DNA from: Candidatus Nezhaarchaeota archaeon WYZ-LMO8
Lineage (GTDB): Archaea > Thermoproteota > Methanomethylicia > Nezhaarchaeales > WYZ-LMO8
NCBI GenBank assembly: GCA_004347965.1
Contig: QNVF01000008.1
Span: forward strand, 1 to 38,013
DNA: 38,013 nt
Reading direction: 5' to 3'
Part shown: positions 21,001 through 24,000 of the stretch, piece by piece
Layout of the letters: each line of letters opens with the position of its first letter
Position numbering within the stretch: position 1 is the stretch's first letter
Made by a program: the position numbers

Positions 21001-24000
21001 ACATAATTCATGCATCTGACAGCAAGGAAAGTGCTGATAGGGAGATCAAGATTTTCTTTGATGAGGAGGAGCTGTGCAGCTACTCGAGAGCTGATGAGCT
21101 TTGGCTTTAAAGGCATTAGAGGTCTTCTAATCGACAAGTTAAAGAGCGTACTCTTCGGTTTTCATCACGCTAAACTATTTGAGAGGAGGTGTCATGTTGT
21201 GAGTAGCGTAGAGAGTAAGAGGATTAGGTCGCCAATACTTTGCGTACTGGGGCATGTTGACGTTGGGAAGACGCTTCTCCTAGACAAGATTAGAGGTACT
21301 GCAACGATGTTTAGGGAAGTTGGGGCCATGATGCAGCGCTCTTCAGGGGGCGCTGCATGGTAGACCCAACACATTGGAGCTTCTTTCCTGCCTTGGTCTG
21401 CTCTTGAGAAGATATGTGGTCCATTACTTAAGAGTATAAGTGTTGAGATTAAGATACCTGGCTTCTTGGTCATTGATACTCCAGGTCATGAGGTCTTCGT
21501 TAACTTGAGGAGGAGAGGAGGCTCGATAGCTGACATGGCTATTCTGGTTATAGACATCCTTGAAGGGTTTGAGGAGATAACTTATGAGTGTTTGGAGATC
21601 CTGAAGGCTAGGAAGACCCCATTTGTGGTTGCTGCAAACAAGATAGATAAGATACCTGGATGGGTTGAGAACGAGTTTAAGCCTTTCATTGAGACAATAA
21701 AGCTGCAGCCTCCTCACGTTCAAAAGAGGCTTGATGAGCTCGTCTACAACATAGTTGCTAAGTTTGAAGAGTTGGGATTCCAAGCTGATAGATATGATAG
21801 GATAAGGGACTTCACGAGGACTGTAGCTATAATACCTACCAGCGCTAAGACTGGAGAGGGCATACCAGATCTTTTACTTGTCTTAGCTGGCTTATCTCAA
21901 AGATACATGTTAAAGAGGCTCTACGTTGAGGAATCAACGGCTAAGGGGGTAGTGCTTGAGTGCAGGGAGCTACCAGGCTTGGGTACGGTAGCTGACGTGA
22001 TAATCTACGATGGCATATTAAGAAAGGATGACACGATAGTGCTTGGCGGGCTCAAGGATCCCATAGTTACTAAGATCAGAAGCTTACTAATGCCTAAGCC
22101 AATGGATGAGATGAGGGATCCTGAGGATAAGTTCAAGAGCATTGATGAAGTTACGGCAGCTGCTGGTGTGAGGATTGTAGCTCATGGGCTTGATGAAGCC
22201 GTAGCTGGAAGCCCCCTATTTTCAGCGAGAAGTCAAGCTGAGATAGAGATGGCCATAAAGCAGGTATTTGAGGAGATGGCGAAGATCAGGATAACAACAG
22301 ACATCACTGGAGTTGTAGTCAAAGCTGACACACTAGGTTCTCTTGAAGCGCTGGTGCTAAAACTGCAGGAGCATGGCGTTCCGGTAAGGCTTGCTGATGT
22401 AGGTAAGATATCTAAGAGGGATGTGGTGGAAGCCTCCATAACGAGGGAGAAGAACCCGCACTATGGTGTGATTTTGGCGTTCAATGTAGGCATAAACCCT
22501 GATGCCGAACAGGAAGTAGAAAGTAGGGGTATACCGGTCTTCAGGAGCAACGTCATCTACAGGCTGATAGATGAGTACTTAGAATGGACCAAGAAGAGGA
22601 TGGAGGAGGAACGTAGACAGACTCTATCCTCCCTAATACTGCCAGGTAAAGCGCAGATACTAAAGGGCTACGTCTTCAGGAGGAGCGACCCAGCAATAGT
22701 TGGAGTCGAAATATTGACTGGAAGGTTGAGACCAGGATATCCATTAATGAACTCTAAAGGTAGGAGACTCGGTGTGATAATGCAGATACAGGAGCAGAAG
22801 AAGAGTTTAAGTGAGGCTGTAGCTAGACAAGCTGTTGCAATATCGATTAAGGGTGACGTGATAATAGGTAGGCAAGTCGATGAAGGAGATTACATCTACG
22901 TTGACGTACCCCCGGAGCACGTAAGGATATTGAAGGAGAAGTTCTTGGATCAATTATCGAAGGAAGAGCTTGAGCTCCTCGATGAAATAGTTAAAATGAG
23001 AAAAGCTGCTGGTAGATACTAGTCGTGCTCGACGACCTCAAAGTTTTTAGCTAAGTCGTAGAGTGTGTTCATGCTAAGGGGTGAAAGTAACGCCCGAGTT
23101 TAAAGTGGTTGTATCTGATCCATCAACTGGAAAAGCTCAGCAAGTAACTGTTAGCGGACCACAAGCAAATGCATTGATAGGTCTCAGGATAGGAGACGAG
23201 GTGGACGGTGCATTGATTGGAGTGCCCGGAGTAAGGCTTGTAATTAAAGGAGGAAGTGATAGAAGCGGAGCTCCTATGAGAGCTGATCTTCCAGGTCCTG
23301 TAAAGCGAAGATTACTGCTAAGTCAGGGTCCAGGATTTAGGCCAACGAGAAAGGGTTTGAGGAAGAGGAAGCTTGTCAGAGGAAACACGGTATCTGAGGA
23401 CATAGTTCAGATTAACATGGTTATAAAGCGTGAGGAGGTTAAGCATGGCTGAAGAGTGGATGAAGAGACAAGCTGAACTTAACATCGGTACAACGGGTCA
23501 CGTAGATCACGGGAAGACGACCTTGACTTGGGCTCTATCTGGAGTATGGGCTTCGAGACACTCTGAGGAGCTAAGGAGAGGGATAACTATTAAGCTGGGT
23601 TATGCAGATACAATCGTGTTGAAGTGCCCTAAGTGCCCACCTCCACAATGCTACACAACTTATGCCCTATCAGGAAGTACATGTAAGCATTGTGGATCTA
23701 AACTAGAGTTTGTTAGGAAGTACTCATTCGTAGACTGCCCTGGACACGAGATTGCACGCCCATAGCGGGCGTGCAACGTGATATGCTAATGGCTACAATG
23801 CTTGCAGGAGCAACGATGTTCGATGGCGCCATACTGGTAATAGATGCTACGGTTCCATGCCCTCAACCTCAAACGCGAGAGCACTTAAAGGCTCTTGAGA
23901 TAATGGACGTGAAGAACGTAGTAGTAGTGCAGAACAAGATTGAGGTTGTCCCGAAGGAGAAGGTTATAGAGAACTATCGTCAAATAAGGGAGTTTCTAAA

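Follow-up and report, generated by a model that had tools for sequence, protein, structure and literature searches.

A pre-mRNA intron in cbf5 of the Desulfurococcales and Sulfolobales was reportedly described by Watanabe in 2002 and by Yoshinari in 2006. According to the portion of Yokobori 2009 (PMC2738675) available to us, this intron is short, of the bulge-helix-bulge (BHB) type and located in the coding region; a hetero-oligomeric splicing endonuclease (EndA) cuts it at the bond that links bulge residues two and three, often within a relaxed BHB, and it has been gained and lost in a lineage-specific manner; that portion records it in two orders only, with Thermoproteales, Korarchaeum and Thaumarchaeota scored as intron-free. 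Relaxed BHB substrates are cut by two-subunit EndA, as stated in the available parts of PMC2738675 and PMC5829648. A BHB intron is also present in the 5' UTR of the Haloferax volcanii HVO_1309 mRNA (PMC7714728 and PMC10485636, both available in part), so that the claim of the genome-wide survey's note that cbf5 is the sole precedent holds for coding regions and fails for mRNA as a whole. In textbooks, and in the accessible sections of the same two reviews, archaeal coding genes are presented as uninterrupted save cbf5, and further such introns are considered probably still to be discovered (PMC10485636).

The BHB introns of archaeal tRNA and rRNA have the same motif, cut rule and enzymes as the mRNA introns described here, whose host RNA is, in contrast, a translated message, and whose removal must therefore be base-exact and compete with translation. 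Outside Archaea, splicing of HAC1/XBP1 mRNA by IRE1 is non-spliceosomal, removes a short intron set by local stem-loops and has its ends joined by tRNA ligase, while the unspliced form yields a different or truncated product and splicing acts as a regulated stress switch. RtcB has been linked to XBP1 splicing in animals (PMC8718801, in the part available).

Here we analyse a window of 38,013 nucleotides of Candidatus Nezhaarchaeota archaeon WYZ-LMO8, together with the rest of its genome, in which nine inserts interrupt eight protein-coding genes and are very probably archaeal BHB introns in pre-mRNA, processed in the EndA/RtcB manner. They resemble the crenarchaeal cbf5 intron as short BHB elements in coding regions, and Cbf5 is interrupted here too (a likeness at the level of the gene), but one gene in two orders is concerned there, against eight genes and nine introns in another class here. 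With HVO_1309 they share an mRNA as splicing-endonuclease substrate outside tRNA and rRNA; the Haloferax enzyme is homodimeric and its intron lies in an untranslated leader, so that splicing rebuilds no reading frame, whereas the present introns interrupt codons of conserved motifs in a host with a two-subunit enzyme. The likeness to HAC1/XBP1 consists in a short non-spliceosomal mRNA intron, ligation by a tRNA ligase and an altered unspliced product; the nuclease there is IRE1 and the process is regulated, whereas here EndA is proposed and no sign of regulation is seen. A literature search, with most subscription journals outside it, returned no BHB introns in aIF5B, aIF2-gamma, uS5, pyrG, purA, hypD or mtnA, and no report of BHB introns in Nezhaarchaeales or Methanomethylicia. 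Related methanogenic classes have reportedly been brought into culture (PMC12700198, PMC12244365).

Two hairpin inserts in initiation factor genes

The window contains two of the nine inserts, GC-rich hairpins set within a BHB frame in the genes for aIF5B and aIF2-gamma (Table 1); reading the sequence confirmed both positions claimed in the genome-wide survey's note. In aIF5B exon 1, the family match starts at residue 67-71 of the translation, and the matches to NF003078 (profile 4-44) and to TIGR00491 (profile 1-37) extend exactly to the final exon residue, while exon 2 resumes NF003078 at its first residue (profile 45-591, E 2.6e-232). The same holds for aIF2-gamma, in which exon 1 is matched up to its final residue by NF003077 (profile 2-96) as well as by TIGR03680 (profile 2-92) and NF003077 begins again at residue 1 of exon 2 (profile 97-411, E 1.2e-141). 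The NCBIfam coordinates thus continue without gap or overlap, from 44 to 45 and from 96 to 97.

Table 1. Exons, introns and BHB elements of the two interrupted genes in the window (coordinates count from the first nucleotide of the window).
Feature	Coordinates	Strand	Remarks
aIF5B exon 1	21010..21330	+	frame from first start codon; true start uncertain; 107-aa translation
aIF5B outer helix, 5' strand GTTGGG (exon 1)	21319..21324	+	pairs with 21365-21370
aIF5B central 4-bp helix, 5' strand GCCA (exon 1)	21325..21328	+	partner 21358-21361, inside intron
aIF5B 5' bulge TGA	21329..21331	+	inferred cut 21330/21331
aIF5B intron, 33 nt	21331..21363	+	in-frame TAG at 3' end; BHB energy -31 kcal/mol
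aIF5B 3' bulge AGA	21362..21364	+	inferred cut 21363/21364
aIF5B outer helix, 3' strand CCCAAC (exon 2)	21365..21370	+	partner 21319-21324
aIF5B exon 2	21364..23022	+	552 codons + stop; begins TQHIGA
aIF2-gamma exon 1	23430..23750	+	ends ...DCPGHE
aIF2-gamma central 4-bp helix, 5' strand CACG	23745..23748	+	pairs with 23777-23780
aIF2-gamma 5' bulge AGA	23749..23751	+	cut 23750/23751; RNA contig joint agrees
aIF2-gamma intron, 32 nt	23751..23782	+	in-frame TAG 23763-23765; BHB energy -17.7 kcal/mol
aIF2-gamma 3' bulge ATA	23781..23783	+	cut 23782/23783
aIF2-gamma exon 2	23783..24733	+	316 codons + stop; begins MLMATML

Stretches of 71 nt around the two inserts are more stable than shuffled sequences (z -4.7 for aIF5B, -3.2 for aIF2-gamma). 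Unconstrained RNAalifold returns the BHB for aIF5B (16 sequences) as well as for aIF2-gamma (10 sequences); the minimum-energy fold of the single aIF5B sequence has a slightly shifted register, and the BHB register given here is that of RNAalifold. The 16 aIF5B sequences pair in 93.8% of cells over the six pairs of the outer helix and in 98.4% over the central helix, one pair of which alternates between GC and GU; 8-11 bp closed by a 4-nt loop make up the inner hairpin (21332-21357), eight of whose nine pairs show double, compensatory changes. Overall, 94.4% of cells are paired against 32-38% with the partners slid, and none of 500 shuffles reached the observed covariation. In aIF2-gamma, the central helix is invariant and paired in all 10 family genomes and 10 bp of inner helix (23752-23761/23767-23776) enclose a loop of 5 nt; covariation is weak (two compensatory pairs, both from one genome; 14 of 500 shuffles reach the observed value), and since the outer helix amounts to 1 bp only, the structure is a relaxed BHB.

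Geometry and reading frames of the nine inserts

The pattern of the window inserts recurs on the other contigs, where each of the seven remaining inserts, when read individually, showed the geometry that the survey had ascribed to it. All nine possess a 4-bp helix between two 3-nt bulges on opposite strands and an inner helix, of 3-11 bp; the outer helix, of 6 bp in aIF5B, is reduced to 0-3 bp in the others, relaxed forms such as are described for cbf5 in the available part of PMC2738675, which also provided the cut rule applied throughout (cleavage behind the second bulge base on either strand). The A.C mismatch noted before in the central helix of CTP synthase intron 2 is indeed present in this genome, the pair being A-U in 8 of 10 family genomes. 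Both introns of the CTP synthase gene, which lie 52 nt apart, have a common exon context (ACCCAT/A, the slash marking the junction here and below) and common intron ends (AGGC...GCCGGGTA).

Excision by this rule reproduced all junction peptides claimed for the nine inserts, including GAM/TQHIGA and GHE/MLMATML. Restoration of frame and motif, likewise claimed for all nine, is profile-exact for seven junctions—the two in the window and five elsewhere—and compatible for PurA and HypD, whose second exons begin at profile positions 17 and 43 and whose first exons are too short for scoring. Outside the window, the profile continues from 66 to 67 in uS5; in CTP synthase, the gap between positions 43 and 57 is filled by a 33-nt middle exon; and one split codon each is found in MtnA (155 to 157) and Cbf5 (66 to 68), the latter at GGTL/DPK with an insert of 22 nt. 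Across relatives, insert length varies at a single site (29-33 nt in aIF5B, 31-35 in aIF2-gamma, 22-34 in uS5), is not kept to multiples of three and ranges from 16 to 35 nt overall, and 86 of 91 instances contain an in-frame stop.

A scan of both strands of the genome (2.7 Mb) for BHB energies of -15 kcal/mol or lower gave 11 hits at seven distinct loci, four of which are claimed introns fusing two open frames, and the aIF5B intron ranks second best genome-wide; in bins weaker than this threshold the fusing share is 0 to 3.5%, about 2% overall. Ranking by BHB energy therefore does discriminate, unlike the open-frame test alone: permissive scans with that test produced 366-389 'rescues' against 340-395 with shifted splice sites, because most hits just join neighbouring genes. 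A relaxed scan (bulge-A filter, one helix mismatch, codon-usage score) recovered six of the nine known introns, three with very short exons being missed by design, and none of its 22 further candidates was accepted, as they are AT-rich and unlike the GC-rich introns. Twelve stop-free, in-frame candidates in long ORFs, whose peptides look native (e.g., the Cys motif CIVACPF), were rejected by eye, and what looked like internal stops in PurA of four relatives are the natural stop codons.

Distribution among relatives

In an order-wide survey of 15 genomes, the aIF5B insert is present in 15 of 15, that of Cbf5 in 14 of 14 and that of uS5 in 14 of 15. In contrast, the aIF2-gamma, PurA and both CTP synthase introns occur in 10 of 10 genomes of the host family and in none of five from the rest of the order, and a similar restriction is seen for MtnA (9/9 in the family, 0/5 outside) and HypD (9/9 and 0/4). 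The aIF5B and Cbf5 introns are the oldest in the order and that of uS5 is intermediate, while six introns were gained (or retained) only in the host's family; the introns are heritable, and as kin share ancestry, counts across genomes are not independent. Within the class, 42 of the 59 informative genomes carry the aIF5B intron, and so do some MAGs that bear the title Baldrarchaeota or Odinarchaeota; the survey's note understated this spread, the intron being a trait of most of the class.

Intron-free orthologues read straight through the corresponding sites (GHE/MLMATML, DPY/IN.D, NPY/MHGE, GDEGK/GKI, HVCGT/HE, THCN/AG, QTD/AGE). Uninterrupted orthologues had been claimed at every junction; sister families indeed match for the six introns confined to the host's family. 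For Cbf5, the order holds no uninterrupted orthologue (insert in all 14 genomes having the gene), so that this junction rests on profile continuity.

Proposed mechanism, alternatives and consequences

The genome encodes two EndA paralogues (PF01974), one corresponding to the catalytic half and the other to the N-terminal half and the beta-subunit models, and a single RtcB ligase gene (E 4.7e-181); the EndA genes lie in the regions C12:27651-27908 and C2:24757-25020, that of RtcB in the region C10:11042-12352. The genome is rich in tRNA introns: ARAGORN predicts them in 16 of 40 tRNAs, and one tRNA gene that it missed becomes recognisable only when the same cut rule is used to take out a T-loop BHB insert of 18 nt.

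Direct RNA support covers one of the nine introns. The metatranscriptome contig said to lack exactly the aIF2-gamma insert was recovered (run X1, contig record 6; 525 nt, depth 35): it matches 23459-23749 with no mismatch, continues with a single A and then matches 23783-23992 with four mismatches, which, read as an exact junction, implies G>A at 23750 besides these four, in an assembled contig of a near-identical strain for which a DNA allele without the intron is formally possible. At the aIF5B site, the RNA library yielded a single contig (188 nt, depth 3.2), in which the insert is still present; it may stem from pre-mRNA or from carried-over DNA, and spliced aIF5B RNA was not observed. Runs X2 and X3 gave no matching reads and X4 two, away from the sites, and are uninformative either way.

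That the inserts stay in the RNA, the genes being pseudogenes or split genes for two polypeptides and the hairpins small insertion elements, is highly improbable. Gene-like frames do lie on both sides, such as the 320-aa C-terminal frame of aIF2-gamma opened by the GTG at 23771, and the retained aIF5B insert agrees with such a state. However, all eight genes are single-copy (one match each in this 93% complete genome), and those for aIF2-gamma, aIF5B and uS5 are essential; the breaks fall in core motifs (GTPase switch regions, the PurA P-loop, the Cbf5 GTLD), which would make two-piece proteins implausible; and the inserts are kept across whole families, their stems compensating while loops and lengths drift. 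The exact lack of the aIF2-gamma insert from one RNA contig speaks against both this state and a ribosomal bypass of the hairpin on an uncut mRNA (programmed hopping of the phage T4 gene 60 type), the least credible of the alternatives. The gene 60 bypass is characterised by a hairpin, a stop near take-off and matching codons at take-off and landing. The first two recur here, every gap holding a stable hairpin and, close to take-off, a stop; the codons, on the other hand, mismatch (ATG versus TAG before landing in aIF5B, GAG versus GAT in aIF2-gamma), and the conserved trait is a 3-4-3 BHB geometry that uses exon bases and is unneeded for hopping.

That the inserts are removed by self-cleavage, or by enzymes other than EndA as nuclease and RtcB as ligase, also appears very unlikely. 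The roles of EndA and RtcB are assigned here from sequence, aIF2-gamma has no real outer helix and one central helix bears a mismatch, all of which would leave room for other enzymes; against this, the genome has both a two-subunit type of EndA and RtcB. The catalytic RNA core of group I and group II introns runs to hundreds of nucleotides, and a self-splicing identity of either kind fits neither the size of the inserts, too short at 16-35 nt, nor the lack of any Rfam match above threshold in the window, ribozymes included. Moreover, geometry and cut rule are those of EndA substrates, relaxed ones included, as far as the available parts of PMC2738675 and PMC5829648 describe them.

Structure, profile restoration, enzymes, compensatory conservation, uninterrupted orthologues and one spliced RNA thus fit splicing-endonuclease introns. 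In the proposed course of events, exon and intron bases would pair after transcription into the 4-bp helix between two 3-nt bulges, stabilised by the intron-internal hairpin and in aIF5B also by the exon-exon outer helix; a splicing endonuclease of the two-subunit (alpha-beta)2 type, presumably the EndA pair, would cut behind the second base of both bulges; and RtcB, the likely ligase, would join the exons, the intron probably being circularised. Only the ligated mRNA would encode full-length aIF5B, aIF2-gamma, uS5, CTP synthase, PurA, HypD, MtnA and Cbf5, and translation of an unspliced message would terminate prematurely at the in-frame stop present in nearly all inserts; these stops would act as a safeguard. 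Like the aIF2-gamma intron, the other eight inserts are presumably removed in vivo. With inserts in two genes of the window and in six more essential genes, this archaeon would have to splice many of its mRNAs.

More tentatively, and with considerable doubt, mRNA BHB introns could represent a heritable, still-spreading archaeal class that settles in core-gene motifs of the highest conservation and has expanded in one family through six or more gains; reverse splicing, or copying into sites able to pair with the intron's 4-nt guide, may be the means of their spread. The aIF5B switch-I site is occupied over most of the class and again in the MAGs titled Baldrarchaeota or Odinarchaeota, and the in-intron stops would, on this view, make the output of the translation machinery depend on EndA/RtcB activity.

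Against the lone exception of cbf5, eight core genes with nine BHB introns between them, one intron being conserved over most of a class, have practical consequences: as these genes are called in pieces or in truncated form, marker-gene sets, estimates of completeness and reconstructions of metabolism are affected, in these lineages and apparently in some Asgard MAGs. The pattern of gain at the level of the family offers a rare natural series on the entry and persistence of non-spliceosomal introns in coding regions, and opens to study why they target conserved motifs, like inteins and homing introns. For the organism itself, the introns would make translation initiation factors and one ribosomal protein dependent on the tRNA-splicing machinery.

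Fold and reading frame of the aIF5B and aIF2-gamma inserts

The genes for aIF5B and aIF2-gamma are each broken at a GC-rich hairpin in a genome of 43.5% G+C, and both breaks are predicted to fold into the helix-bulge-helix-bulge-helix (BHB) substrate of the archaeal splicing endonuclease. That of aIF2-gamma is a relaxed BHB, since its outer helix is reduced to a single A-U pair. If each bulge is cut after its second base, the rule given for cbf5 introns in section 8 of PMC2738675, introns of 33 and 32 nt would be released, and the 71-nt stretches containing the hairpins are more stable than their dinucleotide shuffles (z of -4.7 for aIF5B and -3.2 for aIF2-gamma).

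Features of the two interrupted genes in the window
Feature	Positions	Strand	Remark
aIF5B and aIF2-gamma genes	21010-24733	+	each seen by ORF lister as two pieces
aIF5B ORF pieces	21010-21363; 21466-23022	+	ORF listing
aIF5B outer helix	GTTGGG 21319-21324 with CCCAAC 21365-21370	+	
aIF5B 4-bp helix	GCCA 21325-21328 with TGGT 21358-21361	+	read from sequence
aIF5B 3-nt bulges	TGA 21329-21331; AGA 21362-21364	+	opposite strands of the helix
aIF5B inner hairpin pairing	21332-21339 with 21350-21357	+	read from sequence
aIF5B putative intron, 33 nt	21331-21363	+	cut after second bulge base
aIF2-gamma ORF pieces	23430-23765; 23771-24733	+	ORF listing
aIF2-gamma 4-bp helix	CACG 23745-23748 with CGTG 23777-23780	+	
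aIF2-gamma bulges	AGA 23749-23751; ATA 23781-23783	+	
aIF2-gamma inner helix, 10 bp	23752-23761 with 23767-23776	+	
aIF2-gamma putative intron, 32 nt	23751-23782	+	cut after second bulge base

Exons of the eight interrupted genes were submitted separately against NCBIfam profiles, and the continuity of profile coordinates was read across each junction (see the table of nine introns). The profile gap from 43 to 57 in CTP synthase is exactly filled by the 33-nt middle exon and two split codons, while exon 2 starts at profile position 17 in PurA and 43 in HypD, exon 1 of both being too short for scoring. The junction peptides quoted in the genome-wide survey's note were reproduced, and the computed spliced translations are full-length proteins.

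The unconstrained RNAalifold fold that the survey had described for aIF5B was recovered on 16 sequences (alignment A1), with an outer helix, a 3-nt bulge, the 4-bp helix, a second 3-nt bulge and a 9-bp inner helix. Pairs form in 94.4% of the cells of this alignment and in 32-38% once partners are slid by 1-3 columns; both-sided changes occur in 8 of the 9 inner-helix pairs, and the covariation values were reached by 0 of 500 shuffles. The exon-borne helices vary little because they are coding sequence, with G-C/G-U alternation at wobble positions. Compared with that of aIF5B, the aIF2-gamma intron is younger and shows far less variation (98% of cells paired). RNAalifold returned its 4-bp helix and two 3-nt bulges; its two compensatory pairs both come from one genome, the observed value being reached by 14 of 500 shuffles, and the loop varies from genome to genome, almost without exception, in both sequence and length.

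Genome-wide scan, splicing enzymes and RNA

The 1.35-Mb genome was scanned in full, on both strands, for a 4-bp helix with 3-nt bulges and a compact inner hairpin, and hits were scored by ViennaRNA energy on the imposed structure. At -15 kcal/mol or below, 11 hits fell at seven distinct loci: aIF5B, uS5, MtnA, aIF2-gamma, a perfect AT-rich palindrome on contig C34, a hairpin antisense to a long ORF on contig C56, and a tRNA T-arm. Removal of the insert joins two long open frames in four of these 11 hits, as compared with 0 to 3.5% in the weaker bins (~2% overall), a background that gives a binomial chance of ~5e-5 by hand calculation. Looser scans of the whole genome brought no discrimination. 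The palindrome (C34:3778-3835), a perfect 23-bp inverted repeat in an intergenic-looking place, is the scan's most stable hairpin.

Two genes carry the catalytic-fold domain of the splicing endonuclease EndA, one matching the C-terminal, catalytic half of fused enzyme models and the other the N-terminal half together with 'subunit beta' models; by these matches the enzyme is of the two-subunit type, a kind reported in PMC5829648 to accept non-canonical substrates. The RNA ligase RtcB is encoded by one gene. ARAGORN predicted introns in 16 of 40 tRNA genes, two predictions (875 and 963 nt) being implausible. As an internal positive control, the cut rule used for the mRNA inserts was applied to an 18-nt BHB insert in a T-loop (contig C1, 66363-66380), and only after this excision did ARAGORN find the tRNA at C1:66320-66500 (minus strand). 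A 27-nt anticodon-loop intron then appears as well, so that this tRNA has more than one intron, one of them at a non-canonical site.

Of five RNA sequencing runs found, four (X1-X4) were compared with the window. The spliced aIF2-gamma contig reported by the survey was found again among the Logan contigs of the metatranscriptome X1 (record 6, 525 nt, depth 35.2), where 23459-23749 with 0 mismatches is followed by an A and then by 23783-23992 with four. This contig is most simply read as coming from a near-identical strain that has a synonymous G>A at 23750 (GAG to GAA), and as lacking exactly 23751-23782; GAA at this codon also occurs in three relatives (G011, G013 and G006). The strain itself is unlikely to carry an intron-less allele in its DNA, because the intron is present in the DNA of 10/10 family genomes, seven of them of the same genus. 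X1 record 2 (188 nt, depth 3.2), from the run that yielded the spliced aIF2-gamma contig, spans 21208-21392 with the aIF5B insert retained, and may be a precursor or DNA carry-over, or could reflect slow splicing. Spliced aIF5B RNA was not seen in X1-X4; X2 and X3 had no reads on the window, and X4 had two, away from both sites.

Distribution in the order, the class and beyond

The named relatives of the aIF2-gamma exon are Candidatus Nezhaarchaeales MAGs (84-87% identity) and Candidatus Methanomethylicia MAGs (71%). Every site was read in the 15 species genomes of the order, which form three families (f1, n = 10 with WYZ-LMO8 included; f2, n = 4; f3, n = 1).

The nine putative introns: site, predicted fold, profile continuity and occurrence in the order (energy listed for loci at or below -15 kcal/mol)
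Intron	Motif at site	Energy (kcal/mol)	Length range (nt)	Profile: exon 1 end, exon 2 start	f1	f2	f3
aIF5B	GTPase switch I	-31.0	29-33	NF003078: 44, 45; TIGR00491: 37, 38	10/10	4/4	1/1
Cbf5	GTLD		19-23	NF003280: 66, 68 (one split codon)	9/9 with gene	4/4 with gene	1/1 with gene
uS5		-20.6	22-34	NF003125: 66, 67	10/10	4/4	0/1
aIF2-gamma	GTPase switch II	-17.7	31-35	NF003077: 96, 97; TIGR03680: 92, 93	10/10	0/4	0/1
CTP synthase 1	DPYIN and NPY (the two introns)			NF003792: exon 1 end 43; 57 at second residue of exon 3	10/10	0/4	0/1
CTP synthase 2			30-33		10/10	0/4	0/1
PurA	P-loop		16-18		10/10	0/4	0/1
MtnA	THCNAG	-18.0	27-32	NF004700: 155, 157 (one split codon)	9/9	0/4	0/1
HypD	HVCGTHE		20-25		9/9	0/4	gene not found

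Intron-free genomes of the order read the predicted junctions unbroken, as the survey had claimed for uninterrupted orthologues: PGHE-MLMATML in aIF2-gamma, KIDPYIN.DAG.MNPYMHGE in CTP synthase, GDEGK-GKI in PurA, HVCGT-HE in HypD, THCN-AG in MtnA and QTD-AGE in uS5. Insert lengths at the same site drift and are not confined to multiples of three, and translation of the inserts is therefore ruled out. An in-frame stop lies within the insert in 86 of 91 instances across the order and the nine sites, a descriptive count among kin and not a statistical test. This stop is often codon two, three or four; in the two CTP synthase introns it arises across the 5' junction (T|AG).

The uninterrupted aIF5B orthologue P0001 (from locus L014) was searched against all 62 species genomes of the class, giving a match in 60, one of them partial, and hence 59 informative genomes. 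In 42 of these the match contains a stop and a 20-35-nt insertion or starts only at the exon 2 codon, namely all of families f1, f2, f3 and f8 and 26 of the 30 of f9. Sites were read in 39 of the 42 (G038, G041 and G058 left out): in 37 the insert occupies the same codon and conforms to the strict BHB rule, its length being 22, 25, 27 or 29-33 nt and the stems differing widely. The other two (G046, G047) carry an insert of 27 nt with a mismatch in its hairpin. The 17 uninterrupted genomes are those of f4-f7 and four of f9 (G031, G039, G052, G053; loci L160, L162, L165), and in these four the sequence reads REVGAM-TQHIGA with the exon bases of the helices kept, which looks like precise intron loss.

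Among the best 150 matches from a phylum sample of 401 genomes (248 more ranked lower), all ~125 from outside the class were uninterrupted. Unexpectedly, the same codon of aIF5B is occupied by a BHB intron of 33 nt in four MAGs, two of them titled Candidatus Baldrarchaeota, one Candidatus Odinarchaeota and one 'uncultured archaeon'. In a sample of the phylum of those Baldrarchaeota and Odinarchaeota MAGs (121 genomes, 117 with a match), 18 suspicious sites were read. Five (G417-G420, G427; L235-L238, L250) follow the strict BHB rule at that codon with 30-33 nt, and three (G461, G469, G477; L252, L254, L257) carry a hairpin insert of ~29 nt there. A second aIF5B insert site is the P-loop codon GHIDHGK|T, with a 29-nt hairpin insert in four genomes (G426, G472, G437, G498; L251, L253, L255, L256) that has a BHB-like frame and one mismatch in the 4-bp helix; two others (G438, G448; L258, L260) have an AT-rich insert about the P-loop. 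Three sites (G441, G451, G534) were false alarms, with the stop upstream of the start codon, and in one (G493) the motif was absent.

Placement, mechanism and novelty

Each of the nine sites falls within the best-conserved motif of the protein concerned; inteins and homing introns are likewise placed in conserved motifs. The reason could be that precise loss is most difficult there, or that the exon bases forming the helices are held constant. The CTP synthase introns (C78:29519-29601; L002:9519-9601) lie 52 nt apart around the 33-nt exon. Throughout the family (ten genomes) both have ACCCAT|A as exon context and AGGC...GCCGGGTA as intron ends, which hints at intron copying and may reflect duplication into a look-alike site.

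That the inserts mark pseudogenes or split genes is highly improbable: the hosts are single-copy core genes, the breaks lie within catalytic motifs, evolution preserves the structure, and the aIF2-gamma contig is spliced RNA. Each of the eight genes has a single match in the genome (93.4% complete, 1.0% contamination) and, having no intact second copy, the interrupted genes are not dispensable pseudogenes. Ribosomal bypass of the inserts is extremely improbable, as take-off and landing codons do not match and hopping does not need the conserved geometry; removal by another nuclease, an unnecessary assumption, is very unlikely. For BHB splicing, what was observed is the structure, the exact frame restoration, inheritance accompanied by compensatory change, the presence of the enzymes and a single spliced RNA. 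EndA would cut at both bulges and RtcB would ligate the exons, and the stops present in almost all the introns would cut short the translation of unspliced messages.

The survey had regarded cbf5 as the only archaeal protein-coding gene known to carry such an intron. Passages of PMC7714728 (2020) and PMC10485636 (2023 review) indeed give it as the sole coding-region case, to which the 5'-UTR intron of HVO_1309 has to be added; the review, in the part concerned, expects further such introns. Excerpts of a 2024 Asgard paper and a 2026 preprint treat tRNA introns only, and neither these, nor excerpts of a 2025 paper, nor a literature search mostly outside subscription journals gave an earlier report of these introns. 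The mechanism is the known one, and what is new is the host genes, the number of introns per genome and their taxonomic spread.
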